Assembly (NCBI GenBank): GCA_005191425.1
Contig: SUPR01000008.1
Coordinates: 25,590-57,589, forward strand
From: Candidatus Helarchaeota ASGARD archaeon Hel_GB_B
GTDB lineage: Archaea > Asgardarchaeota > Lokiarchaeia > Helarchaeales > HEL-GB-B
DNA: 32,000 nucleotides
Direction of reading: 5' to 3'
Part shown: in pieces, positions 15,951 through 27,806 of the stretch
How positions within the stretch are numbered: the stretch's first letter is position 1
Layout of the letters: the number at the start of each line of letters is the position of its first letter
The notes under the pieces: generated by a model
Told to the model about the DNA's origin: nothing
The model's input: the letters and a program-made list of their open reading frames with translations, nothing else
The model's database searches: none
Program-made: the position numbers and the translations under genes

Positions 15951-17123
15951 ATGAACTCACGTGAACGCGTATTAACTACATTTGAACACCAAGAACCCGA
16001 TAAAATTCCAATCGATTTTGGAGGTAATCAATCGGGAATACATATTATTGCTTATAAAAATTTACTTAAATATTTGGATATAGATGATAAAAATATTAAA
16101 TATTGTGATTTTATCCAACAATTGGCATATCCTTGTGAAGAATTATTAAAACGATTTGAAGTTGATATCCGTTGGCTTAGACCGCCAAAATCACTTTTAC
16201 CTGAAAATTTTATGCCAATAATTGAAGGGAAATATATTGGGATTTATGACCAATTCGGTGTATTTTGGGGCGATAGTAAGGAAAAAGATGTCAAGGAAAT
16301 ATTATATTATTCACCCCAAATCCATCCTCTGGAAGATTTAAATACTATAAATCAAATTAAAAATTTTGACTGGCCTGATGGGACTGATAAAAAGCCATTT
16401 AAAGGACTCCGAGAACAAGCTAAAAAGCTCCGTAAAAATACTCAATATGCTATAGCTGTTCCTCCATTAGGTTGTAATTTTGAGTATACTACATTTCTAT
16501 TTGGTTTTAAAAAGGCCCTTAGCCATCTCAGAAGAAAACCCGAACTAATTGTCGCTGCAATGGAAGAATTAAAAAAATATTGGACTGATTATGCTACTAC
16601 TTTTTTGAATGAAATTAAATTTAATAACGAATTTTATGTTGATATAGTTGCTGTTAATAGCGACCTTGCTATGCAAACAGGGCCACTTATGGACCCAGAA
16701 AAAATATATGTCCCAATAATTAAACCAATTGAGAGAGACTTTTCTCAAAAACTGCATAGCCTTGCAAATATCAAGATCAATTTTCATTGTTGCGGTTCTA
16801 TAGCTCCATTTATACCACATTTTGCCGATATACAATATGATGCAGTAAATCCCGTTCAAATTGGAGCTTATGATATGGAACCTTGTAGTTTAAAGAAGAG
16901 GTTCGGAGAAATAATAACTTTTTGGGGCGGTCTCTGCGACTCTCAACATACACTACCATATGGACCTTTGAAAAAAATAGAAAATGAAGTCAAATATAAC
17001 TTAGAATGTTTCAAAAAAGGCGGTGGATATATAGCTTCGAGTGTGCATAATATAACTTCAGAAGTACCACCTGAAAACATAACTACAATGTTTGATACAC
17101 TAATAAAATATAGAAAATATTAA
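15951..17123 (+). CDS. UroD/MtaA-family (cobalamin-dependent methyltransferase-like) TIM-barrel protein
   Basis: MNSRERVL....HQEPDKIPID, FHCCG, AVNPVQ, GGGYI and VHNI....PPEN. Starts 14 bp downstream of the GH94-like gene. Confidence 0.88.
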   Translation: MNSRERVLTTFEHQEPDKIPIDFGGNQSGIHIIAYKNLLKYLDIDDKNIKYCDFIQQLAYPCEELLKRFEVDIRWLRPPKSLLPENFMPIIEGKYIGIYDQFGVFWGDSKEKDVKEILYYSPQIHPLEDLNTINQIKNFDWPDGTDKKPFKGLREQAKKLRKNTQYAIAVPPLGCNFEYTTFLFGFKKALSHLRRKPELIVAAMEELKKYWTDYATTFLNEIKFNNEFYVDIVAVNSDLAMQTGPLMDPEKIYVPIIKPIERDFSQKLHSLANIKINFHCCGSIAPFIPHFADIQYDAVNPVQIGAYDMEPCSLKKRFGEIITFWGGLCDSQHTLPYGPLKKIENEVKYNLECFKKGGGYIASSVHNITSEVPPENITTMFDTLIKYRKY

Positions 17124-17153
17124 TTTTCTTAAAAATAAAAGGATTTTATCAGT

Positions 17154-18323
17154 TTATTCATCAATTTTAATTGGATAATTTCCATATTTTTCTCTAATTC
17201 TCATTACAGCTTCCCATCTATCAATAGTGACCGCAGGGTTGATACTATGTCCACTACTAAAAATGTATCCTCCTCCTGGAGCCAAAACTTTAATTAACTT
17301 CTTAGAATATTCCTCAATTTCTGAAATCTTTCCCTGGCTCAACATTACTGGACTAATATTCCCAACAAATGTTAATTTATCACCATATTTTTCATGTAAT
17401 TTGAAAATATTATAATCTGGATTTGCAGTAGTCGGTTCAATCGGATTAAGAGCATCAACCCCTGAACTTACAATATCTTCAAAAATTTGCATTAGATCTC
17501 CATCAGAATGCAGTAATATCTTAGAATCGTTTTTATGCGCAGCTTCACAGATTCTTTTTATCCATGGAAATACATATTGTCTATAATTCTTAGGACTCAT
17601 GAACAGTCCATTTTTAAAGCCATAGTCATCCCATAAAATAATCAGTCTTGCTCCATTTTCTGCCAATATCTTGACCATTTCTAAAGTAAACTCTCCTCTA
17701 TCATCAAATACTTTTTTAATTTGTTTTCTATGGGCTAATAAACGTGAAAAATTCTCTAAGCCAAATCCTTCCCACGTGCATTCCATCAATGCCCCCACTG
17801 CAGGAACATTAAAAACTTCATGTTTCATTTCATTTTCAAGATCTTGTCCCGCAAGAAAATTTATAATTCGTATTTCGTCATTAGGGTCAAGTTGTTCCCA
17901 ACTTTCATAATCATCAAAGTCCTTAAAGAAACCCCCATAATATCCTAAAATTATTGTCCCATCTCCACTGTATTTCTCAAGTTTCATAATTCTCCCATAT
18001 TCATCTATGAATCCGTTCTTTATTATTTTTCGGGGAAATAAGGATGCTACTGATATACCAATATCTAATTTTACCCTCCTGCTAAATTCAAATATCTCTT
18101 TTAATCCTTTTGCTACTAATTTTCTATTTTTTAAAGCACTCCTCATTATACTATGACGAAAAGGTATAAATCTTAGTATTTTTAAACCTGCAAACAGTCC
18201 AGCACTGGGTTTTATCCCATAATGCCGCATAATTGTATTATTTGTAAATGCACTTTCAAATGCTGGAACTCGGTCAGGTTCCTCATGATTAATAGCCATT
18301 AAAACCCTTGTAGGTGCGTCCAT
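17154..18323 (-). CDS. UroD/MtaA-family methyltransferase-like protein, second copy
   Basis: RVLMAINHEEPDRVP, WDDYG...GLFMSP, LHSDG, LNPIEP, GNI and GGGYIFSSGHSI. Starts 2 bp after the corrinoid gene. Confidence 0.88.
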   Translation of the reverse strand: MDAPTRVLMAINHEEPDRVPAFESAFTNNTIMRHYGIKPSAGLFAGLKILRFIPFRHSIMRSALKNRKLVAKGLKEIFEFSRRVKLDIGISVASLFPRKIIKNGFIDEYGRIMKLEKYSGDGTIILGYYGGFFKDFDDYESWEQLDPNDEIRIINFLAGQDLENEMKHEVFNVPAVGALMECTWEGFGLENFSRLLAHRKQIKKVFDDRGEFTLEMVKILAENGARLIILWDDYGFKNGLFMSPKNYRQYVFPWIKRICEAAHKNDSKILLHSDGDLMQIFEDIVSSGVDALNPIEPTTANPDYNIFKLHEKYGDKLTFVGNISPVMLSQGKISEIEEYSKKLIKVLAPGGGYIFSSGHSINPAVTIDRWEAVMRIREKYGNYPIKIDE

Positions 18324-18325
18324 TA

Positions 18326-18967
18326 TTAACCCTCCATTAAAATGTTTATATGTCTAACTCCGTCTATTGCATCATTTGCATAATCATCGGTTCCCATCTT
18401 TTTTGCAATTTCCATATTTAATGGTGCCCCACCTACAATTATTTTCACTTTATCTCGCAATCCCGCACTTTTTAATGCGTCTACAATGTTTTTAATTTCT
18501 TCGATAGTCATAGTAAGCAAACAGCTTAAAGCAATAACCTTTGCTTTTGTTTTTTTAATTGCTTTTATAATCTTATTAGCAGGGCAATTTGTCCCTAAAT
18601 CAATAATTTCGTATCCGGCAGAAATCAACATCGTAATTAATATATTTTTACCAATATCATGATTATCTCCTTTAACTGTTGCACAAATGATTTTTCCTTT
18701 ATTTCCTTGCTCATCTGCTTTTAAATATGGATTTAATACCGTCATTGCGTCCTTCATTGTCTCTCCCGCTAAAATAAGGTCTGTTAAAAAATATTCTTTT
18801 CTTTCATACAACCTTCCTACTTCGTCCATACCCTCTGTTAATACTTGTAATATTTGTTTGGGATCTGTACCTGCATCTAATTCAGCTTGAACAGTTTCTT
18901 TTATTTCATCTACATTTAAGTCGATAATTAATTCTTTTATTTTATTTAATGTCAAATTAAAGACCAT
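18326..18967 (-). CDS. Corrinoid (B12-binding) methyl-carrier protein, MtaC/MtbC-like
   Basis: N-terminal cap domain (GMDEVGRLYERKEYFLTDL), DxHxxG motif (GDNHDIGKN), ALSCLLT and IIVGGAP. Confidence 0.95.
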   Translation of the reverse strand: MVFNLTLNKIKELIIDLNVDEIKETVQAELDAGTDPKQILQVLTEGMDEVGRLYERKEYFLTDLILAGETMKDAMTVLNPYLKADEQGNKGKIICATVKGDNHDIGKNILITMLISAGYEIIDLGTNCPANKIIKAIKKTKAKVIALSCLLTMTIEEIKNIVDALKSAGLRDKVKIIVGGAPLNMEIAKKMGTDDYANDAIDGVRHINILMEG

Positions 18968-19236: not shown

Positions 19237-19914
19237 TTAATTAAGTAATCTATGTTTATTATAACTCCAGATTAAGTCATCAAATTCTAGTGGATACAAT
19301 TTATTGTTGTAATAATCTTCGATTAACTCTATGATTTTCTTTTGACATAGTTCATATTTTTCTTTATCTATATTTGTTAAACTAGTCAAATTCATTTTTA
19401 GGGTTTGTAGCATGAATCTATCAATCGGCGAATTAAACCATTTTATTACTTTTTTGGCATATTCTTGGTCTGGTATATTGCTATAATAAAATACAAATTT
19501 TGTTGCAACGTCAATAATTTTAGCGGCTTGCCCCCAACTTATTCTACTTGTCGTTTGAGTTTTGACAGGTTTGATATTTTTAATTGCCCATTTACAAAAT
19601 TCATCGTGTAGTTCTACGTAGTCTTCTCTTCTTTCCATTTCGAACATTTTATTTATAGTATTGAATAATTTTGGTAATATCAATTCTTTTGATCTAGTTG
19701 AGAAATTTCGGAGCATAGTACTTATATTTAGTGATATATTTATTATGTTCTTAACTTTAGCTTCCATTACTTCTCTATAAAAATCTTTTTCTATTACTTC
19801 ATCATCTGAATACATCCTAATCCCCGTATCTCTATTACATTTTGGACATTTATTGTCTTCGGCAGACTTACCTTCCCATGTATAATTACACTCAAAGCAT
19901 ATAAATTTAACCAT
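19237..19914 (-). CDS. Hypothetical protein with N-terminal zinc ribbon (CFEC-x16-CPKC)
   Basis: 225-aa ORF with ATG start and AAGGT upstream. The C-terminal region (WGQAAKIIDVATKF, NSPID, LEFDDLIW) is not assigned with certainty. Confidence 0.75.
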   Translation of the reverse strand: MVKFICFECNYTWEGKSAEDNKCPKCNRDTGIRMYSDDEVIEKDFYREVMEAKVKNIINISLNISTMLRNFSTRSKELILPKLFNTINKMFEMERREDYVELHDEFCKWAIKNIKPVKTQTTSRISWGQAAKIIDVATKFVFYYSNIPDQEYAKKVIKWFNSPIDRFMLQTLKMNLTSLTNIDKEKYELCQKKIIELIEDYYNNKLYPLEFDDLIWSYNKHRLLN

Positions 19915-20492: not shown

Positions 20493-21155
20493 TTATTCAC
20501 GTAAATATACAATTCTTAAGAAATCTGCTGTATCTTCAGCAGAGTCGGCTATCGATTCTATGAATTCTATTAAAATATGTATTGTTATTGCAATAAATGG
20601 ATTACTTGGTGGTTCGATTGACAGCAATTTTTTATGTAATTTTAAATGGTCAATATCGACTATATGTTCTTGTTTATTGATTTTATGTATTTCTTCGATT
20701 AGTTCATCTTTTTTTAGTTTTGCAGGGTTAAGAAGCATATTTTTTAGGAGAAAAGCGCATTCTTTTGCATCACTTAGCATTTCTATTAGGTCTTTACATA
20801 TTGGTTTAATCATTTCTGGCTTTAATATAGATAATCTCCTACCTGCTCCATTTGCAGAGTTTGCCAACCGGTCTAAATTCTTAACTAAATGAGCCAAATT
20901 TTCCCTAATATTAGATGGCAATAAACTTTTGGAGAGTTTATACATTAAATCTCTACGAATATTATCAGCTTCATTCTCAATCTTATTAATCTTCTTAATA
21001 ATTTCTTTTGAAACTGCAATATCGCCTTTACAAAACTTTTTTAATGCAGATTCAAGTTCTACTACTGCATCATATACTTTCATTGCATGCGATCTGGTTA
21101 ATCTTAAGATTTCGTTTTCTTTTTTGGCACCAAAAAAGTCAATTAATTTGCTCAT
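20493..21155 (-). CDS. DUF47 / TIGR00153 PhoU-like phosphate transport regulator
   Basis: 220 aa helical protein with duplicated E-x-x-A/V-D motifs (IENEADNIRR, QEHIVD) and IADSAEDTADFL. Confidence 0.88.
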   Translation of the reverse strand: MSKLIDFFGAKKENEILRLTRSHAMKVYDAVVELESALKKFCKGDIAVSKEIIKKINKIENEADNIRRDLMYKLSKSLLPSNIRENLAHLVKNLDRLANSANGAGRRLSILKPEMIKPICKDLIEMLSDAKECAFLLKNMLLNPAKLKKDELIEEIHKINKQEHIVDIDHLKLHKKLLSIEPPSNPFIAITIHILIEFIESIADSAEDTADFLRIVYLRE

Positions 21156-21257
21156 TTATTTTCACTGAAAATTCAATCAATTTTAATGATATATAAATCT
21201 CTATATTTATATATAGTAATTTAAAAAAGATATTTAAAAACTTTTACATAAAATCAA

Positions 21258-22364
21258 TTAAAAAACATCGATTGCTTTTTCCAATCCCTCTTTTGGATAA
21301 GGAAATAGTAATGTACGGTCTGGTGAAAAATAAATTGCAACTTCTTCTCCTTCTTTAAACCAAGCTTTTGTTGCATGCCTTTTTAAAGTAAAAAGTTCTC
21401 CTGAAGTTAATCGCACTTCTTCAATACTATTTCCAGATACAAATTTAGACGTTTCTACGGTACCAAATAACACATTTTGCGTTTCTATTTTTTTGTTTCT
21501 TGAAATTTTTATATTTTCTGCTCTTATTGCAATAACTACTTTAGAACCAATTGGAAAATTTTTGTTAGAAACAAGAATTTTTTTCCCGTTTGAGAGCAAA
21601 ATGTAAGAGCCCTTTTCAACAATATCAATGATATTACCTTCTAAAAAATTACTAGTACTTATGAATCTACAAACAAATAAATTTTTAGGAGTTTCATAAA
21701 TTTCGCGTGGTGTACCAACTTGAATTATTTGTCCTTTGTGAATAATTGCTATTCTATCTGATACCATTAAAGCCTCTTCAGTATTCTGGGTAACATGAAT
21801 ACAAGTTAAGCCAAGTTTTTTTACTAGGTTCATAAGTTCATATCGTAAAGCCAGTCTAATCTTAGCGTCAAGAGCTGAAAGAGGTTCATCCAAGAGAATT
21901 AAATTTGTCGATGAACTTGCCATCATTGCTCTGGCTAAAGCAACCCGTTGTTTCATTCCCCCACTTAATTCATGTGGATATGCTTTTGGCCGGTTCTGTA
22001 ATAGGACTAACTCAAGCATATAATTTATCAACTGTCTTGATTCTTTTAATGTCTTTCCTTCAAGAACTCTTGGGCTATATCCGACATTTTTTTCTACTGT
22101 AAGGTGTGGGAAGAGTGCATAATTTGAGTGCTCAAAGACCATACCAATACCACGTTCTTCAGGTTCTTTGTCCGTCATATCCTCTCCGTCAAAATAAACT
22201 CTACCACTATCTGGCTTTAATAAACCGGCTATTATTTTTAATGTTGAGGTCTTCCCTGCTCCAGTAGGGCCACAAATAGTTAAATATTCTTTTGAATTGA
22301 TTTGTAAATTAATATTATAAAGAGAGTCCTTAATATTAATATTTTCTAATCTAATTTCGGTCAT
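21258..22364 (-). CDS. ABC transporter ATP-binding subunit 1 (PotA/CysA-like with TOBE-type C-terminus)
   Basis: GPTGAGKT, LSGGMKQR and LLDEP. The Q-loop reads VFEH and the H-switch reads VTQN. Likely start is ATG 22364, 7 nt after GAGGT; the track starts at TTG 22370. Confidence 0.95.
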   Translation of the reverse strand: MTEIRLENINIKDSLYNINLQINSKEYLTICGPTGAGKTSTLKIIAGLLKPDSGRVYFDGEDMTDKEPEERGIGMVFEHSNYALFPHLTVEKNVGYSPRVLEGKTLKESRQLINYMLELVLLQNRPKAYPHELSGGMKQRVALARAMMASSSTNLILLDEPLSALDAKIRLALRYELMNLVKKLGLTCIHVTQNTEEALMVSDRIAIIHKGQIIQVGTPREIYETPKNLFVCRFISTSNFLEGNIIDIVEKGSYILLSNGKKILVSNKNFPIGSKVVIAIRAENIKISRNKKIETQNVLFGTVETSKFVSGNSIEEVRLTSGELFTLKRHATKAWFKEGEEVAIYFSPDRTLLFPYPKEGLEKAIDVF

Positions 22365-22379
22365 TACCAATACCTCGAG

Positions 22380-23495
22380 CTATTCAAGTGCAAGTTCATA
22401 ATCCAAATCCTCTGGATATGGAAATAATAATACATTTTCAGGGTGTAATTTTATATAAACTTTAGACCCAACTTCAAATTGAATACTGGGTGGATAAGTG
22501 ACCTTGGCTTCAATGATATCACCATTTTCTAATTCTATATTAACTCGTAGGTGAGAACCTAAAAATGCAATATTATTGATATTACCTTCGATTAAATTAT
22601 TATCTTTTAATTTGTTTTCTTCAATAAATTCTTTAATCTTAACGAATTCTTTTCTTATTGAACCAATAACTCTATCTCTTTTATAAAAATGTTTATTTTT
22701 TGAAAAAATTATTGGTCCACCACCATGTAATTTAATTTGAGTATATTTATCAATAGATTTGACTTCTCCTTCTACGAAATTAGATTCACCAATAAAGTTT
22801 GCTACAAAAATAGCGTTAGGTTTAATATATAAGTCTCCTGGAGTCCCAACTTGTAAAATACTACCTTTCCGCATAACAGCGATTCTATCACTAATCATCA
22901 TTGCTTCATCTTGATCATGAGTGACATGTATTGCTGTTATATTTAATTTTTTGACCAACTTTCTCATTTCTACTCTAAATTCATCTCTATACCGTTGGTC
23001 TAATGCGCCTAATGGCTCATCTAATAGCAAAATCTTCGCACCCGTTGCAAGAGCCCGAGCTATTCCAATTCTTTGAAGTTGCGGCGCAGTTAATTCGAAG
23101 GGAAATTTGTCAACATATTTGTCCAAATTGACCAAATGGATATATTTTGAAACCCGTTCCTCAATTTCATCTTTATTGACTCCACGAACTTTACAAGAAT
23201 AACTAACGTTATCCCATACATCTAAAAATGGAAATATCTCGAAATGCTGAAATACCATTCCAATATTTCTTTCCTCTGGAGGTACATTAAAATCTATTTT
23301 TTTATCTCCAAAATAAATTTCTCCCGAATCAGCTTTTTCTAGCCCTGCAATAATTCTCAATGTAGTAGTTTTACCACATCCACTAGGCCCTAATAAAGTT
23401 AAGTATTCACCATCATAAACTTTTAAACTAACACCTCTAACAGCTTGAACGCTTCCAAAGCTTTTTTTAATATTATCCAAGATAATATCGACCAA
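22380..23495 (-). CDS. ABC transporter ATP-binding subunit 2
   Basis: GPSGCGKT, VFQH, LLLDEP and VTHDQ. The signature motif reads LTAPQ. TTG start. Confidence 0.95.
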   Translation of the reverse strand: MVDIILDNIKKSFGSVQAVRGVSLKVYDGEYLTLLGPSGCGKTTTLRIIAGLEKADSGEIYFGDKKIDFNVPPEERNIGMVFQHFEIFPFLDVWDNVSYSCKVRGVNKDEIEERVSKYIHLVNLDKYVDKFPFELTAPQLQRIGIARALATGAKILLLDEPLGALDQRYRDEFRVEMRKLVKKLNITAIHVTHDQDEAMMISDRIAVMRKGSILQVGTPGDLYIKPNAIFVANFIGESNFVEGEVKSIDKYTQIKLHGGGPIIFSKNKHFYKRDRVIGSIRKEFVKIKEFIEENKLKDNNLIEGNINNIAFLGSHLRVNIELENGDIIEAKVTYPPSIQFEVGSKVYIKLHPENVLLFPYPEDLDYELALE

Positions 23496-23516
23496 TTTTA
23501 TTCTCCGACTTTCATT

Positions 23517-25214
23517 TTATGTTTTAATTTTTAATATTTTTTCTCTTGTTGTTATATGTCTTAATATTAAAATTAAGACAAATGACAGGACAATTAAAAT
23601 AAAACTTGCAAATGCAGCTGAAGGTAGGTCAATAGACTCCACCCAGTCAACAATTGTAACTGGTATGGTTCGTACTAAACCCATGACTACAAATGTAGCC
23701 CCCGTTTCTCCAAGACTCCTAGTAAAGACCATAATAGAACCAGCAAGTAATGCATTTCTTAGAAGTGGGATAGTAACTTTTCTAAATGTAGTAAAACTAT
23801 ATGCACCAAGAGTTCTAGATGCCTCTTCATAACCCGAGACAATTCCTTCTAGACTTGCAATAAGCACCCTCGTCATATAAGGAAATGTAAATACGATATG
23901 GACTATTATTATTAACAAATATCCTGGCGTTAATAGTCCTCCTATAGACCTAAATGGACCTATTGTACCCCAAAATAAAAAAATTGAGAATCCAAGGGCT
24001 GATGACGGAATTGCAAGAGGTAAATCAATCAAAGTATCCAAGATTGCATTAAATTTACCCCACTTCCGACGCACTACAATTATTGCCATAGCCAGCCCTA
24101 AAACAATATTAATTAATGTTGCAACTGCAGCAATTGATAATGAATTCATCAAACTTATCCAAAGAGATGCCCATTTATTGTCCGATTGAAAAAAAACTTG
24201 GTTTATAGCGCCATTTGGGCCACTTAAATTTAAAAATAAATAATCTATACTATATAACGCAGGAATTAATATTAGAAATCCAAAAAAGAAGATAGTAAAT
24301 CCATCTCTTAACCACCTAAATACCTTTTTTGATAAGAATTTTTCAGTTCGGACAAAAACCCTATATACCGGCAGTCCAATTTTCCTGGTAATTGTTTTAA
24401 TAAGAATTAATAAAATAATAGCTATAATGACCAAAATCATAGCCAAAAAAGCAGCAGGTCCAAATAATGCTTGGGATTTTAACGTAACAATTTGTATTGG
24501 TGCAGTTTCTGCCACTCCATATACTATAAGTGTTGCACCAGTTTCTCCCAAACTTCTTGTAAATGCCAAAATTGCACCTGCTATTAGTCCTTCTTTAATC
24601 AATGGAGCTGTAATCGTCCTAAATACCGTAAACTTCCGAGCACCAAGGCTCTGGGCAGCTTTTTCAAGAGTTTCATCTTGGTTCATTAATATTACTTTTA
24701 TATTTCGAGTAATGTAAGGATATGTGAAAACTACATGGGTTAAAATTATCATAATAACTCCGGGCGAAATTAACCCTCTATCAAGCCCAAAGATCCATGC
24801 AATACCCGAACTTGAACCCCAAAATAATAAAATTGAAAATCCTAATGCAGCAGTGGGGACAGCCATTGGTAAATCTACAAGTGTGTCAAGGATCCTTTTT
24901 CCTTTAAAATCATATTTTACAAGAATAATCGCCATAGGAAGTCCAATTAATATATCTATAATAACAGTAATCGCCGATATCATTAACGAACGTAACAAGG
25001 CAGTACCCATATCTACAAATCGAGTTGACCCGGATACTGGATTATTAAAAATCCAAAACGAAACATCATTCCATTCTTGAATTACATAAGTGAAAATATA
25101 TAAAATAGGTATAATTATAATAACGAAAAAGATTAATAAACTAGTAAAATCGCCTATTATTCGAGCTTTTTTACTAGATAATGATTTGTCTATTTTTCTT
25201 ATTAGATCTACCAT
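23517..25214 (-). CDS. Fused two-domain ABC permease (CysT/CysW/ModB/FbpB-like)
   Basis: Two homologous halves (DLPMAVPTAALGF and DLPLAIPSSALGF), two EAA loops (EKAAQSLGA and EEASRTLGA), and RSLGETGAT twice. Likely start is ATG 25214; the track starts at TTG 25226. Confidence 0.93.
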   Translation of the reverse strand: MVDLIRKIDKSLSSKKARIIGDFTSLLIFFVIIIIPILYIFTYVIQEWNDVSFWIFNNPVSGSTRFVDMGTALLRSLMISAITVIIDILIGLPMAIILVKYDFKGKRILDTLVDLPMAVPTAALGFSILLFWGSSSGIAWIFGLDRGLISPGVIMIILTHVVFTYPYITRNIKVILMNQDETLEKAAQSLGARKFTVFRTITAPLIKEGLIAGAILAFTRSLGETGATLIVYGVAETAPIQIVTLKSQALFGPAAFLAMILVIIAIILLILIKTITRKIGLPVYRVFVRTEKFLSKKVFRWLRDGFTIFFFGFLILIPALYSIDYLFLNLSGPNGAINQVFFQSDNKWASLWISLMNSLSIAAVATLINIVLGLAMAIIVVRRKWGKFNAILDTLIDLPLAIPSSALGFSIFLFWGTIGPFRSIGGLLTPGYLLIIIVHIVFTFPYMTRVLIASLEGIVSGYEEASRTLGAYSFTTFRKVTIPLLRNALLAGSIMVFTRSLGETGATFVVMGLVRTIPVTIVDWVESIDLPSAAFASFILIVLSFVLILILRHITTREKILKIKT

Positions 25215-25227
25215 AATTCTCCACAAA

Positions 25228-26367
25228 TTATTTCGCTTTTGTTACTAACCACAAATCCGGAAGATATTTAAAAACATCACTTTGAATTGCTGGATTGTAT
25301 AATGGAATTGTTAAGTCGCGTTTAAGTCCATTACCATAGTTAAAAATTGAATTAAACGTAGAATTATAAGTTGCATTTAATAGAATTTTTGGGTTATAGG
25401 GCCTAAATCCATATTGGAACGCCTCTTTTATAGTAGAATTTAATTGTAAAAATTCTAAAAATTGTTTTGCTGCCTCATATTGTTTTTTCGAAACCCAACT
25501 TCCTTTTAAAATGGTAAATGGGTGGTCCGCTAATAATGTCCCATCTCGTGGATAGATTGCTATCGCTTTTCTGCCTGATACTCCATTGTTTATATTTATT
25601 ACCAAATTCTCATAAATCATAAAGACATCTAATGTTTGATCCATAGCTCGGTGCGCCAGAAAACCAGTACTTTTCCCATAAAATTCACATTCTCCCTCTA
25701 TATCATGCATCCAAACCCTCAAGCTGTTATTCAAGAGGTCATTTAATATAATTTCTGAAGTATTTTTCTTAAAAAAAGAAGCTACTTCCATTACAACAGC
25801 CATATATCCTGAATTTGATAATTGTGGGTCTGTATGGGATAACCTTAAATTAAATGATTGAACAGCCACATTTCTTAAATCATTAAAACTGGTTATTCCG
25901 TATGTATTATTAAAATCTTCCCATGTACCAATTACAAAAGGTGAATATATAATCCTAATATTTTCTTCACTATTAGAAATATTAATTAAATTCGTTTTAA
26001 ATATTCTATTCCATTCATTATTAAGATAATAAATCCAAATACTTGATGCGGGACTCAAAATCACAGGTCGGATCTCTCCCGTTATTGTCGAAATGCACAT
26101 ACTTCTTGAGCCCATTGGTCTAAAATTTACCGCAATCGTTTCACCACCATTTTTAGCAGAATACCAGTTGACAAATTCTGACACAATCGATTCAATCCAA
26201 GCCCGCTTCTCAGAACTATAAATCATTGTAAGTGTTACATCTGCAGTTTCAGAACTCCCCAGCATAATCCCAACTGGAATTCCAATCCCAAGACCAACTA
26301 AAAAAATTATTATAAACGCACCAAATTTTCTTTTATATCTATGCTTTATCCGTATATTTGAACTCAT
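25228..26367 (-). CDS. Membrane-anchored solute-binding protein (SBP_bac_11-like, of the type normally fused to a vWA domain)
   Basis: Basic N-terminus plus one TM helix, then YSSEK, SPASSIW, SPFVI, HTDP..SNSG, STGFL, YENLV and YPRDGTLLADHPF. Seven N-x-S/T sequons. Likely start is ATG 26367; the track extension to 26451 overlaps a separate small ORF. Confidence 0.8.
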   Translation of the reverse strand: MSSNIRIKHRYKRKFGAFIIIFLVGLGIGIPVGIMLGSSETADVTLTMIYSSEKRAWIESIVSEFVNWYSAKNGGETIAVNFRPMGSRSMCISTITGEIRPVILSPASSIWIYYLNNEWNRIFKTNLINISNSEENIRIIYSPFVIGTWEDFNNTYGITSFNDLRNVAVQSFNLRLSHTDPQLSNSGYMAVVMEVASFFKKNTSEIILNDLLNNSLRVWMHDIEGECEFYGKSTGFLAHRAMDQTLDVFMIYENLVININNGVSGRKAIAIYPRDGTLLADHPFTILKGSWVSKKQYEAAKQFLEFLQLNSTIKEAFQYGFRPYNPKILLNATYNSTFNSIFNYGNGLKRDLTIPLYNPAIQSDVFKYLPDLWLVTKAK

Positions 26368-26375
26368 TCTGAAAA

Positions 26376-26495
26376 TTACCCAATTAGTGAATATGCATAT
26401 CCCGTTATATAACCAATTAATATTCCAACTCCAAGTCCAATTAAAAGACATATTGCTAAAATTGTTAACTTAACGGTCAATCTCTTAATTTTCAT
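26376..26495 (-). CDS. Small single-pass membrane protein, 39 aa (MKIKRLTVKLTILAICLLIGLGVGILIGYITGYAYSLIG)
   Basis: Hand-translated ATG-to-TAA ORF, below the track length cutoff. Basic N-terminus followed by a Gly-rich TM helix. Its stop lies 8 bp before the solute-binding protein start. Confidence 0.6.
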   Translation of the reverse strand: MKIKRLTVKLTILAICLLIGLGVGILIGYITGYAYSLIG

Positions 26496-26704
26496 TTACC
26501 AACAATTCCATTAAATTGATCCAGAGAACCTTTATAATCTTCATAACTTTTTGGTTTGTGCTTGTGTAATTATAAACATTCTGAATTATAACATCTATTT
26601 TCTAATTTAGTTTAAAATTCTATTCTATTTATTATTATTCCCTTATTTATTTAAATAAAAATATTTTCGACATAGAATATAAATTTATATTGTAAAAAAA
26701 TATA

Positions 26705-26783
26705 AAAATATATATTTTATATATAATCAATATGAAATTTTTTTAATATATATATTTATAATATAATATATATTTATAATATA
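26705..26783. promoter_or_regulatory. Divergent promoter region: palindrome AAAATATATATTTT and an 18-bp perfect tandem repeat ATATATATTTATAATATA x2 containing TATA-like TTTATAAT
   Basis: Palindrome at 26705-26718; repeat units at 26748-26765 and 26766-26783. The second TATA-like box lies about 35 bp upstream of the phoU ATG. Low complexity limits certainty. Confidence 0.45.
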
Positions 26784-26813
26784 ACTCAAAATAAACAAAT
26801 CTAGTGAATTATA

Positions 26814-27806
26814 ATGGAAACAAGAAAAGTTCAAATTACTGGTGGGTCATCTTATATTATCAGTTTACCAAAAGAGTGGATTAATAAAAATAAAATACAT
26901 CCTAAAGATGCATTAAATTTAATAATACAAGAAGATAAAATTCTACTAATACCACCTAAAAAATTTAAAAAACTTAATTTTAGAGAAAAAGTAATCAATT
27001 TAGAGGATATAGAAGGTGCATCATATCTATTTCGGTTATTAATTGGTGTGTATATGATGGGATATTCTATGATAATTTTACAAGCAAAAAAGAGGATAAC
27101 AATCGAATACCGCGAGGTTATAAAAAAATTTGTAAATGACGCTATTGGACTGGAGATTATGGACGAGAGTCCCTATCAAATTAAAATCAAAGACCTATTA
27201 AATCCTGCAGAGATGCCTTTTGATACAATTACAAATCGTTTATATTTATTAGTAAAAAACATGCTTGATGATTCTCGAATTGCTTTAAATAACAAGGACA
27301 AAGACCTGTCTGAAAATATTGTAAAAAGGGATGATGATATTGACCGTTTGTATTGGTTAATTGCCCGTCAAAGTAATTTAATTCTTAAAAATTTAATAAT
27401 TTCTATTGAAGTAGGCATTGAAACAAAAAATGCAAATTTTTATTATTTTATTTCTAGAATTATTGAACGAATTGGTGATCATGCAGTTAATATTGCAAAA
27501 CATATCCCAATTATTATGGAACGCTTAAAAGAACCACAAATAAATAAAATAAATACAGCAATCCAAGCAGCTTCAGATATTTTTTCAAAAAGTATAAAAA
27601 TCTGGCAGGAAGAAAATATGACTGAAGCTAATCAGATCATCGATTCTGCTGGAAATTTGAATTCTATTTTAAATGAGATTAATAATTTCGCTATTAATAC
27701 AGAAAATGAGGTAGCAATTGCTCTTAACTATATAATAGAAAGTATTAGAAGAATCGCAGATTATTCAACTAATATATGCGAATTAACAATCAATTTTCTT
27801 GTTTAA
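26814..27806 (+). CDS. phoU: Archaeal phosphate uptake regulator PhoU with N-terminal AbrB/SpoVT DNA-binding domain
   Basis: METRKVQITGGSSYIISLPKEW (AbrB-type), then PhoU repeats DDDIDRLY, IERIGDHAVNI and IRRIADYSTNICE. Confidence 0.93.
   Translation: METRKVQITGGSSYIISLPKEWINKNKIHPKDALNLIIQEDKILLIPPKKFKKLNFREKVINLEDIEGASYLFRLLIGVYMMGYSMIILQAKKRITIEYREVIKKFVNDAIGLEIMDESPYQIKIKDLLNPAEMPFDTITNRLYLLVKNMLDDSRIALNNKDKDLSENIVKRDDDIDRLYWLIARQSNLILKNLIISIEVGIETKNANFYYFISRIIERIGDHAVNIAKHIPIIMERLKEPQINKINTAIQAASDIFSKSIKIWQEENMTEANQIIDSAGNLNSILNEINNFAINTENEVAIALNYIIESIRRIADYSTNICELTINFLV

Follow-up and report, generated by a model that had tools for sequence, protein, structure and literature searches.

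Which solute is imported by an ABC transporter that is encoded between two genes for PhoU-fold proteins and is not Pst-like? The question is raised by positions 20493 to 27806 of the window (the whole 32,000-nucleotide stretch of Helarchaeota DNA that was analysed). The operon lies on the minus strand in the order micro-protein, substrate-binding protein (SBP), fused permease, ATPase1, ATPase2, DUF47; an AbrB-PhoU gene is divergent, on the plus strand. Every gene of the initial annotation was recovered by profile and ORF checks. The operon is read here as a conserved, previously undescribed uptake pump made of sulfate-transporter-like parts, whose cargo is probably phosphate and which is nearly always found with a PhoU-like partner gene. 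The analysis shows how the module is built, that it is conserved, which genes it is linked to and how it is distributed among lineages; both the substrate and control by PhoU-type proteins are what we infer from gene context.

The first gene encodes a 39-aa micro-protein with a single transmembrane (TM) segment (26376..26495, minus strand; ORF). A small TM ORF (32-71 aa) is found immediately upstream of the SBP gene in 58 of 74 loci, and its sequence is kept within clades. The SBP gene is present in the ORF first proposed for it (25228-26451, minus strand), with a misplaced start: the true one is most likely the internal Met at 26367, because a 100%-identical 379-aa database protein (P0002) exists and because the longer version would run into the small ORF, which is read in a different frame. 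The gene thus placed (25228..26367) encodes a membrane-anchored SBP of 379 aa that belongs to a distinct Sbp-like family.

The SBP matches SBP_bac_11 (42.1 bits); at E <= 0.01 only PF13531 and PF13416 are matched in Pfam. It had been described as not PstS-like, and this holds: PBP_like_2 (PF12849), the PstS models and all other NCBIfam models are unmatched, and the top fold matches, as listed, include no PstS chain. A plain sequence search against the PDB gave nothing useful. The profile of the SBP family reaches the sulfate-binding protein Sbp (1sbp, E = 0.0017), which is also the best fold match (Z 27.5) of the AF2 model (pLDDT 93.8; N-terminal helix at residues 13-37); PhnS (STM0429) and the sugar-phosphate binders AfuA/VcA0625 are close behind (Z about 25). 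Across 45 homologues, 45 positions are invariant. Sbp contacts sulfate through seven residues: D11, S45, S130, G131, G132, A173 and W192 (PMC7177696). In an hhalign alignment of only 33% probability, these correspond to S52, S87, S184, N185, S186, C227 and Y252 of the SBP: Ser45 and Ser130 align with invariant Ser (two of seven identical), at four contacts a different residue is invariant (S for D11, N for G131, S for G132, Y for W192) and one is uncertain. Contact loops of this Sbp-like kind point to a small anion of tetrahedral shape.

The fused permease (23517..25226, minus strand) consists of two BPD_transp_1 halves. The proposal of a CysT/ModB/FbpB-like and not PstC/PstA-like protein is borne out by the NCBIfam scores, which are CysT/CysW/ModB-like and far below the Pst cut-offs: sulfate permease subfamily (TIGR00969), 231.8 bits summed over the two halves (cut-off 240); ModB, 221.8 (cut-off 182.6, passed only when the halves are summed); CysT, 208.4 (cut-off 246.1); WtpB, 198.3; PstC (TIGR02138), 84.7 (cut-off 196.45); PstA (TIGR00974), 71.1 (cut-off 193.45). 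The Mo_ABC_porter model is also above its cut-off on the summed score of both halves. PhnU2 (116 bits) and ThiP (69 bits) are much weaker.

ATPase1 (22380..23495) and ATPase2 (21258..22370), both on the minus strand, each carry ABC_tran and TOBE_2 domains and are 38.8% identical to each other. ATPase1 is below the cut-off of PstB, an ATPase that has no TOBE domain (TIGR00972, 145 bits against 343.2), and both are below those of WtpC (262.7 and 248.3 against 440) and ModC (157 and 165 against 285). Motifs were aligned in 68 orthologues. ATPase1 keeps Walker A (GPSGCGKT), the Q-loop Q, Walker B (DE) and the H-loop H in 98-100% of them; the consensus of its signature is not LSGGQ (degenerate here, LTAPQ). 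ATPase2 has an intact signature (LSGGM); its Q-loop Q is replaced by E in 91%, and its H-loop H by Q or N (N in 79%).

The operon ends with a gene, 102 nt beyond ATPase2, for a PitR-type DUF47/PhoU_div protein (20493..21155, minus strand). The protein covers positions 5-213 of the 214 of PF01865 (93.3 bits; gathering score 24.4) and is below the TIGR00153 equivalog (87.2 against 104.3). It follows an ABC ATPase and not a PiT-family carrier; the single Pit of the genome has its own DUF47, on contig C115. In Lokiarchaeia, the ABC-linked DUF47 copies form a clade apart from the Pit-linked ones. The divergent gene (26814..27806, plus strand) encodes an AbrB(SpoVT/MazE-type)-PhoU fusion that is a putative transcription factor responding to phosphate. 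Its N-terminal AbrB/MazE domain (MazE_antitoxin, 44.4 bits) is followed by two PhoU stretches (Pfam PhoU, 83.3 bits) that are below the canonical phoU_full cut-off (TIGR02135, 81.6 against 130.25). It is 43% identical to the AbrB-PhoU of locus L053, a Lokiarchaeial type that is divergent from pstS in genome G207. The 3.54-Mb genome has only three PhoU-domain and three DUF47 genes, and one of each flanks the operon; because both types are so few, the bracketing is not due to chance. Bracketing by two PhoU-fold genes, as initially noted, is real at this locus, but it is not the conserved state elsewhere: AbrB-PhoU flanks only 9 of the 68 named loci. The AT-rich divergent intergenic region (26496..26813, 318 bp, from the sequence read) presumably holds the promoters and an operator. 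Within this spacer (25% G+C, in an AT-rich genome), repeats were no better than in shuffled controls and no operator was established; words common to it, the promoter of the genome's Pit-DUF47, the second AbrB-PhoU promoter and the promoter of the closest relative were not above shuffles.

The module is conserved across Asgard archaea, both cultured species included, and in MAGs labelled Bathyarchaeia. Conservation of the PhoU/DUF47 linkage, on which the first proposal depended, was found to be near-universal for DUF47: at least 59 of the 67 loci that could be tested have its gene no more than 600 bp from the operon, and they span Hel-, Loki-, Thor-, Odin-, Heimdall-, Hod-, Borr- and Sifarchaeota and the Bathyarchaeia-labelled MAGs. 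Loci of families f10 and f28 are without DUF47. Pit, PhoU, AbrB-PhoU or PstC is found within about 9 kb in 34 of 68 loci. In two genomes (G207, G276), AbrB-PhoU, pstSCAB-phoU and this operon form one block, to which G207 adds DUF47-Pit. When 521 other ORFs of the neighbourhoods were tallied without bias, only housekeeping synteny emerged, and no gene for sulfur assimilation. PitR/DUF47 goes with the phosphate carrier PitA in 97.8% of bacterial genomes, and PhoU goes with Pst in 99.4%; none of the three accessory-transporter pairs described for bacteria combines DUF47 and an ABC importer (PMC13170248).

Distant bacterial relatives of the SBP retain the same candidate pocket residues, and of 80 loci that encode such relatives, 7 have PstC/A/B, PhoU or PstS directly adjoining. 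For four of these pst-linked loci, ten genes were checked, and all are above NCBIfam cut-offs; the gene of one relative begins 13 bp after pstB.

PstC and PstS above cut-off were found neither elsewhere in this genome (93.7% complete), where a search for pst and pit genes had been advised, nor, for PstC, in the complete MK-D1 chromosome. A strict replacement of Pst was considered and rejected: PstC is also carried by 29 of the 80 SBP-positive genomes, and the system is therefore not a simple substitute. Twelve Asgard families of the sample are without Pit, and ten of these have Pst. In the two others (f10, f28), which lack both, the SBP system is present in 6 of 6 genomes; NptA was not found in five of the genomes checked. 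The SBP genes are intact in the three f10 genomes checked (G006, G017, G056); an in-frame TGA in two f10 matches falls outside the domain. Since f10 and f28 are without a known Pi importer and MK-D1 is without Pst, and all carry the system, Pi itself is the favoured cargo.

On balance, the locus rather more probably than otherwise encodes an importer, evolved separately, of phosphate or a closely related phosphorus oxyanion, together with a PhoU-family accessory protein of its own. The stricter reading is held tentatively, at slightly under even chances: a second archaeal phosphate ABC importer, independent of Pst and derived from sulfate/molybdate stock, whose phosphate-binding protein would represent a new class and whose own accessory subunit would be of PitR type. 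The initial annotation had proposed an undescribed, PhoU-controlled uptake system for phosphate or an oxyanion; gene context in Asgard archaea and in the bacterial relatives favours phosphate within that range. In both sequence and structure, the nearest characterised relatives bind sulfate or transport sulfate and molybdate (sulfate-binding proteins, CysT/CysW/ModB permeases), which speaks against phosphate, as do the lack of DUF47 at the f10 and f28 loci and the presence in this genome of ATP sulfurylase and APS kinase.

An archaeal counterpart of CysPTWA would import sulfate or thiosulfate for ATP sulfurylase (Sat) and APS kinase, for PAPS synthesis, with DUF47 acting in general anion homeostasis. 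Sbp is the best fold and profile match, the top permease score is that of the sulfate subfamily, two contact Ser are shared in the low-probability alignment, and this genome encodes Sat and APS kinase, with no SulP-type sulfate transporter found in it. Sat also co-occurs mildly with the SBP (odds ratio 2.0). This reading has a low probability but is a serious competitor. Sat is absent from 35 of 80 SBP-positive genomes, some of them 100% complete. In 80 loci, sulfur-assimilation genes do not recur near the operon, whose recurrent neighbours are Pit, PhoU, Pst and DUF47; that same alignment shows an exchange at four Sbp contacts out of seven, and the bacterial relatives lie in pst operons.

Equally improbable is scavenging, of Pho-regulon type and beside Pst and Pit, of another phosphorus compound (phosphite, phosphonate, phosphoester or pyrophosphate). 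Bacterial Pho regulons pair Pst with Ugp, Phn or Ptx systems. The module shares an island with Pst and Pit in Lokiarchaeia, PhnS and AfuA/VcA0625 nearly equal Sbp in the fold search, and a gene of the NPP/phosphodiesterase family (cytoplasmic, without signal peptide) is directly upstream of the SBP gene in 21 of 68 loci. However, this gene is limited to Lokiarchaeia and has no close or informative match to characterised enzymes, f10, f28 and MK-D1 have the system without Pst, and the contact loops suggest a small tetrahedral anion.

An anion linked to neither phosphorus nor sulfur (molybdate, tungstate, vanadate, arsenate or bicarbonate) is very improbable: the summed ModB and Mo_ABC_porter scores, the assignment of SulT homologues to tungstate/vanadate in an earlier Asgard transporter survey (PMC7997004) and the fusion of a distant family member (P0171) to carbonic anhydrase speak for it, but the gene context of the operon is phosphate-specific and no molybdopterin, tungstoenzyme or carbon-concentrating gene recurs nearby. 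A tungstate/molybdate role was set aside as unlikely, bona fide WtpABC being encoded separately on contig C92, above equivalog cut-offs.

As a phosphate importer, this conserved archaeal six-gene ABC module would descend from the sulfate/molybdate/tungstate transporter lineage and be wired into phosphate homeostasis. The membrane-anchored SBP would have an Sbp-like cleft, with invariant Ser/Asn/Tyr at the putative contact positions, in which a small oxyanion of tetrahedral shape (inorganic phosphate being the likeliest) is bound before it is handed to the fused 2x6-TM permease. The two TOBE ATPases would drive the permease as a heterodimer in which one ATP site follows the consensus and the other is degenerate. 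PhoU acts on PstB, and PitR on Pit, by throttling uptake. The co-transcribed DUF47 may likewise attach to the transporter and slow import once the cell has enough phosphate, and the divergent AbrB-PhoU may set transcription of the operon.

The module has in common with PstSCAB-PhoU (PhoT) that it is an ABC importer dependent on a binding protein and has a PhoU-fold accessory gene alongside; it shares genomic islands with Pit and AbrB-PhoU and is found where Pst is missing (this genome, MK-D1, f10, f28). Unlike Pst, the module has no component above Pst cut-offs, an SBP_bac_11/Sbp-like and not PBP_like_2 binding protein, one fused permease in place of PstC and PstA, two different TOBE ATPases (one degenerate site) in place of a PstB homodimer, DUF47 in place of canonical PhoU, and a micro-protein gene at its head. 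CysPTWA/Sbp (SulT) is closest by SBP fold and profile and by permease HMM score, has TOBE ATPases (CysA) and shares the helix-N-terminus anion-binding loops; it differs in that the module is under the family cut-offs, has other residues at four of seven contact positions (at 33% alignment probability), a fused permease instead of CysT and CysW, a heterodimeric NBD pair and no linked sulfur-assimilation genes. We know of no DUF47 or PhoU partner of Cys systems. The accessory family (PF01865) is that of PitA-PitR, and in Lokiarchaeia each of its two paralogue clades lies beside a transporter of its own, the two frequently separated by a few kb; the module is a primary ABC importer and not a PiT secondary carrier. 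WtpABC/ModABC have the permease superfamily and TOBE ATPases in common with it, but the SBP matches no WtpA or ModA model and the genome has its own WtpABC. FbpABC/AfuABC/ThiBPQ share a cluster-D SBP, a single fused two-domain permease and a TOBE ATPase; they differ in much weaker HMM scores, one ATPase gene instead of two, and gene context.

Prokaryotic phosphate uptake is thought to use three importer families (Pst, Pit, NptA), each with a PhoU-type accessory. Should the module carry phosphate, a fourth such pair would be added, one assembled by convergence from sulfate-transporter parts, and it would offer a possible route of scarce-phosphate uptake for Pst-less Asgard archaea, including the cultured Promethearchaeum syntrophicum MK-D1. 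It would also be a natural case study of an Sbp-like pocket re-tuned between sulfate and phosphate, and of ABC import in which one of two ATP sites is degenerate. The SBP domain would be a widespread, unrecognised bacterial phosphate receptor (SBP-vWA lipoproteins, kinase and carbonic anhydrase fusions), and the present labels of these genes (iron, sulfate, molybdate, 'chloride channel' proteins) would need correcting.

No description of an Asgard phosphate ABC system, an archaeal AbrB-PhoU or a vWA-SBP in Pho regulons was found in the literature. The SBP domain also occurs in SBP-vWA lipoproteins beside pst operons and fused to a kinase.

The module lies within 20493-27806, where every gene of the divergent arrangement described in the initial annotation, an ABC operon and an AbrB-PhoU gene transcribed away from it, was found. 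The operon is on the minus strand. In order of transcription, it comprises a small ORF for a single-TM peptide of 39 aa (26376-26495), a substrate-binding protein (SBP; ORF 25228-26451), a permease in which two BPD_transp_1 halves are fused (23517-25226), two ATPases with ABC_tran and TOBE_2 domains (ATPase1, 22380-23495; ATPase2, 21258-22370) and a DUF47 (PhoU_div) protein (20493-21155), domains being assigned with Pfam. The successive intergenic gaps are 8, 1, 21, 9 and 102 nt. The SBP start is placed at 26367, since the identical database protein has 379 aa and a start further upstream would make the gene run into the small ORF in a different frame. The AbrB(MazE)-PhoU gene (26814-27806, plus strand; Pfam) is separated from the operon by an AT-rich spacer of 318 bp. 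The host genome (3.54 Mb, 93.7% complete) has a low G+C content (about 30%), and a database search gave Helarchaeota and other Asgard archaea as the closest relatives of the window proteins. Downstream of the DUF47 gene, a 225-aa ORF (19237-19914, minus strand) is regarded as outside the module, because only a weak rubredoxin-like zinc-ribbon match was obtained and no relatives were found across 80 related loci. MtaA/CmuA-like methyltransferase genes and a gene for a B12-binding corrinoid protein are located just downstream of the module (15951-18967).

The module is a real, conserved ABC importer with a dedicated PhoU-family partner, and is apparently undescribed. The SBP is present in 80 of the 301 sampled genomes of the phylum and in 30 of the 70 genera. 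GTDB species representatives provided 143 stretches with an SBP relative, the best 80 of which were taken with names; among them are Hel-, Loki-/Prometh-, Thor-, Odin-, Heimdall-, Hod-, Borr- and Sifarchaeota, the two Asgard species in culture, Promethearchaeum syntrophicum MK-D1 and Ca. Lokiarchaeum ossiferum, as well as about nine Bathyarchaeia-labelled MAGs. Profile HMMs built for this analysis identified the full core, made up of the SBP, the permease and both ATPases, at 68 loci, and 59 or more of the 67 testable loci have a DUF47 gene at most 600 bp away (52 downstream on the same strand, three downstream on the opposite strand, four upstream and divergent). Those Heimdall-type loci that seemed DUF47-negative by tblastn proved positive by profile. 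The small single-TM ORF precedes the SBP gene in 58 of 74 loci, its sequence being conserved per clade. No description of an ABC-DUF47 module was found in the literature search, and the pair is not described in PMC13170248; a survey of Asgard transporters groups SulT homologues as tungstate/vanadate systems (PMC7997004).

Within about 9 kb of the 68 full-core loci, genes encoding Pit (24), PhoU (15), AbrB-PhoU (9), PstC (4) or an NPP-family protein (21) were found; at least one of the first four is present in 34. The linkage to DUF47 is conserved, whereas bracketing by two PhoU-fold regulators is not the rule, AbrB-PhoU being found in the flanks of just these nine loci. A complete Lokiarchaeial genome (G207) carries, in this order, an AbrB-PhoU gene, a divergent pstS-pstC-pstA-pstB-phoU cluster, a DUF47-Pit pair and DUF47-ATPase2-ATPase1-permease-SBP-NPP; similar blocks occur in G165, G237 and G276. 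In a quick, midpoint-rooted tree, Lokiarchaeial Pit-adjacent and ABC-adjacent DUF47 copies form separate clades (24 rows, support 100; 45 rows, support 95). Two conserved genes of the Lokiarchaeial phosphate islands, orf220 (24-25 named loci; G207, L036:3706-4368) and orf206 (13 named loci; L036:1193-1813), have no Pfam or NCBIfam matches; orf220 is always just upstream of Pit and orf206 adjoins phoU or DUF47. When the other 521 ORFs of the neighbourhoods were clustered in an unbiased way, the groups obtained were DNA polymerase B, Ras-type GTPase, M42 peptidase and purine-synthesis enzymes, which is lineage synteny.

Phosphate or a close phosphorus oxyanion is, on balance, the probable cargo, given the gene context, the phyletic complementarity and the bacterial relatives. 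The DUF47 protein would contact the transporter and the AbrB-PhoU protein would regulate the operon. A search of the host genome for pst and pit genes, as suggested by the initial annotation, found no PstC or PstS above cut-off and a single Pit gene, on contig C115, with its own DUF47 gene upstream. A TnpB/IS605 OrfB gene (Cas12f1-like_TNB and OrfB_IS605; L004:3167-3826) lies immediately upstream of this sole Pit-DUF47 pair, leaving only about 70 bp of promoter space. The two other DUF47 genes are the window copy and one beside a LysE gene (C36). Three PhoU-domain genes are present: the window AbrB-PhoU, a second AbrB-PhoU (C114) and one encoding TrkA_C and two PhoU repeats in a single 420-aa protein (C107, L078:4841-6103).

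Among the 301 genomes, the SBP occurs together with PstC in 29 and without it in 51; PstC occurs without the SBP in 127, and 94 genomes lack both (odds ratio 0.42, uncorrected for phylogeny). The system is thus not a strict replacement of Pst, as the 29 genomes hold both. Twelve families lack Pit, and Pst is found in ten of them. The other two (f10 and f28) have no PstC above cut-off and carry the system in 6/6 sampled genomes; NptA was not found in the five of these that were checked. In four of these five genomes (83-96% complete), a search for PstC-like genes gave only the system's own permease and other weak sub-threshold matches. The fifth, the 8-contig Asgard genome G006, has a PstC-like sequence in pieces of 136, 141 and 113 aa, each in a different reading frame (C3:260533-261464), corresponding either to a decayed pstC or to assembly frameshift errors. 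In f10, the permease is encoded by two separate genes and the SBP genes are intact; no ATPase or DUF47 gene is adjacent. Pst is missing from the complete MK-D1 chromosome, which carries two Pit genes; L. ossiferum combines Pst with three Pit genes.

As first noticed, neither the permease nor the SBP is Pst-like. In NCBIfam, the permease scores 231.8 bits with the sulfate-permease subfamily, 221.8 with ModB and 198.3 with WtpB, versus 84.7 with PstC and 71.1 with PstA. The top scores of the ATPases are with PhnT2 and PotA-type TOBE ATPases, ATPase1 reaching only 145 bits with PstB. The SBP has no NCBIfam match and SBP_bac_11 as its sole Pfam match. Its AlphaFold model (45 homologues; pLDDT 93.8) is confident and places an anchor helix at the N terminus, ahead of a class II binding-protein fold, for which Foldseek and VIA-align place sulfate-binding proteins first (5um2, 1sbp; Z 27.5 for 1sbp); the next matches are further cluster-D proteins, namely thiamin, SubI, PhnS/STM0429, polyamine, sugar-phosphate and ferric binders. 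The best PDB sequence for the SBP family profile is also 1sbp (E = 0.0017). The ancestry of the module, as read from these comparisons, is that of sulfate/molybdate transporters. Throughout the family, ATPase1 has a degenerate signature, although its Walker A/B motifs, Q-loop Q and H-loop H are preserved; ATPase2 retains LSGGM, its Q-loop carrying E (91%) and its H-loop N or Q. This asymmetry predicts one consensus and one degenerate ATP site.

Sulfate itself is an unlikely cargo. The host genome has ATP sulfurylase (Sat) and APS kinase, no SulP was found in it, and Sat mildly co-occurs with the SBP (both 45, SBP only 35, Sat only 86, neither 135; odds ratio 2.0). However, some of the 35 SBP-positive genomes without Sat are 100% complete, no sulfur gene is linked to the operon, and sulfur-assimilation genes are absent from the clustering of the 521 neighbouring ORFs. 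On contig C118 of the host (L160:6794-11490), the genes for ATP sulfurylase and APS kinase are separated by one for an unrelated PF01663 phosphodiesterase-family protein, and a sulfatase gene is found close by on the other strand; this cluster suggests a PAPS-making or sulfation module. Transport of a phosphorus compound of another kind is likewise improbable. Other anions are very doubtful, the tungstate/molybdate need being met by a separate WtpABC (WtpA and WtpC above equivalog cut-offs).

Seven residues of Sbp contact sulfate: D11, S45, S130, G131, G132, A173 and W192 (PMC7177696). A profile alignment that pairs the SBP with its E. coli counterpart Sbp, at a probability of only 33% (E = 4.5e-4), relates them to S52, S87, S184, N185, S186, one uncertain position and Y252. 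All are invariant across the SBP family except the uncertain one (the A173 counterpart), and four are replaced by different fixed residues; at this alignment probability, an anion-binding scaffold may have been retained. The candidate pocket, [S/T]52-E53-K54, G86-S87, H178-T179, S184-N185-S186-G187, S233-[S/T]234, Y252-E253, H282 and R322, is kept throughout the wider family, which suggests, from residue conservation, one common ligand.

This wider family comprises 2433 representative clusters in an exhaustive profile search (311 at E <= 1e-30), including SBP-vWA fusions in Methanosarcinales and others and stand-alone proteins in Chloroflexaceae. At 80 metagenome loci with the distant, stand-alone form (L161-L240, bacteria-type contigs), the stand-alone gene is almost always followed by one for an SBP-vWA lipoprotein with a length of about 560 aa, and the two form an uncharacterised, extracytoplasmic pair (for example L186:3756-7175 and L203:5181-8161); no dedicated permease, ATPase or DUF47 gene was found there. 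The pair directly adjoins pst genes in 7/80 loci, at some of which it is embedded in a pst operon, and the ten genes that were checked, from four of these loci, all exceed NCBIfam cut-offs as PstC, PstA, PstB, PhoU or PstS. The stand-alone gene starts 13 bp past pstB in L186, and the pair comes after phoU in L177. This adjacency is a phosphate link independent of the archaeal operons. The SBP domain is also fused to a eukaryotic-type carbonic anhydrase (P0171), to a Ser/Thr protein kinase in the Chloroflexota bacterium Tengunoibacter (P0170) and to OpuAC plus vWA (P0155); the first two fusions keep the pocket residues, and P0155 deviates at two positions (E53D, N185S).
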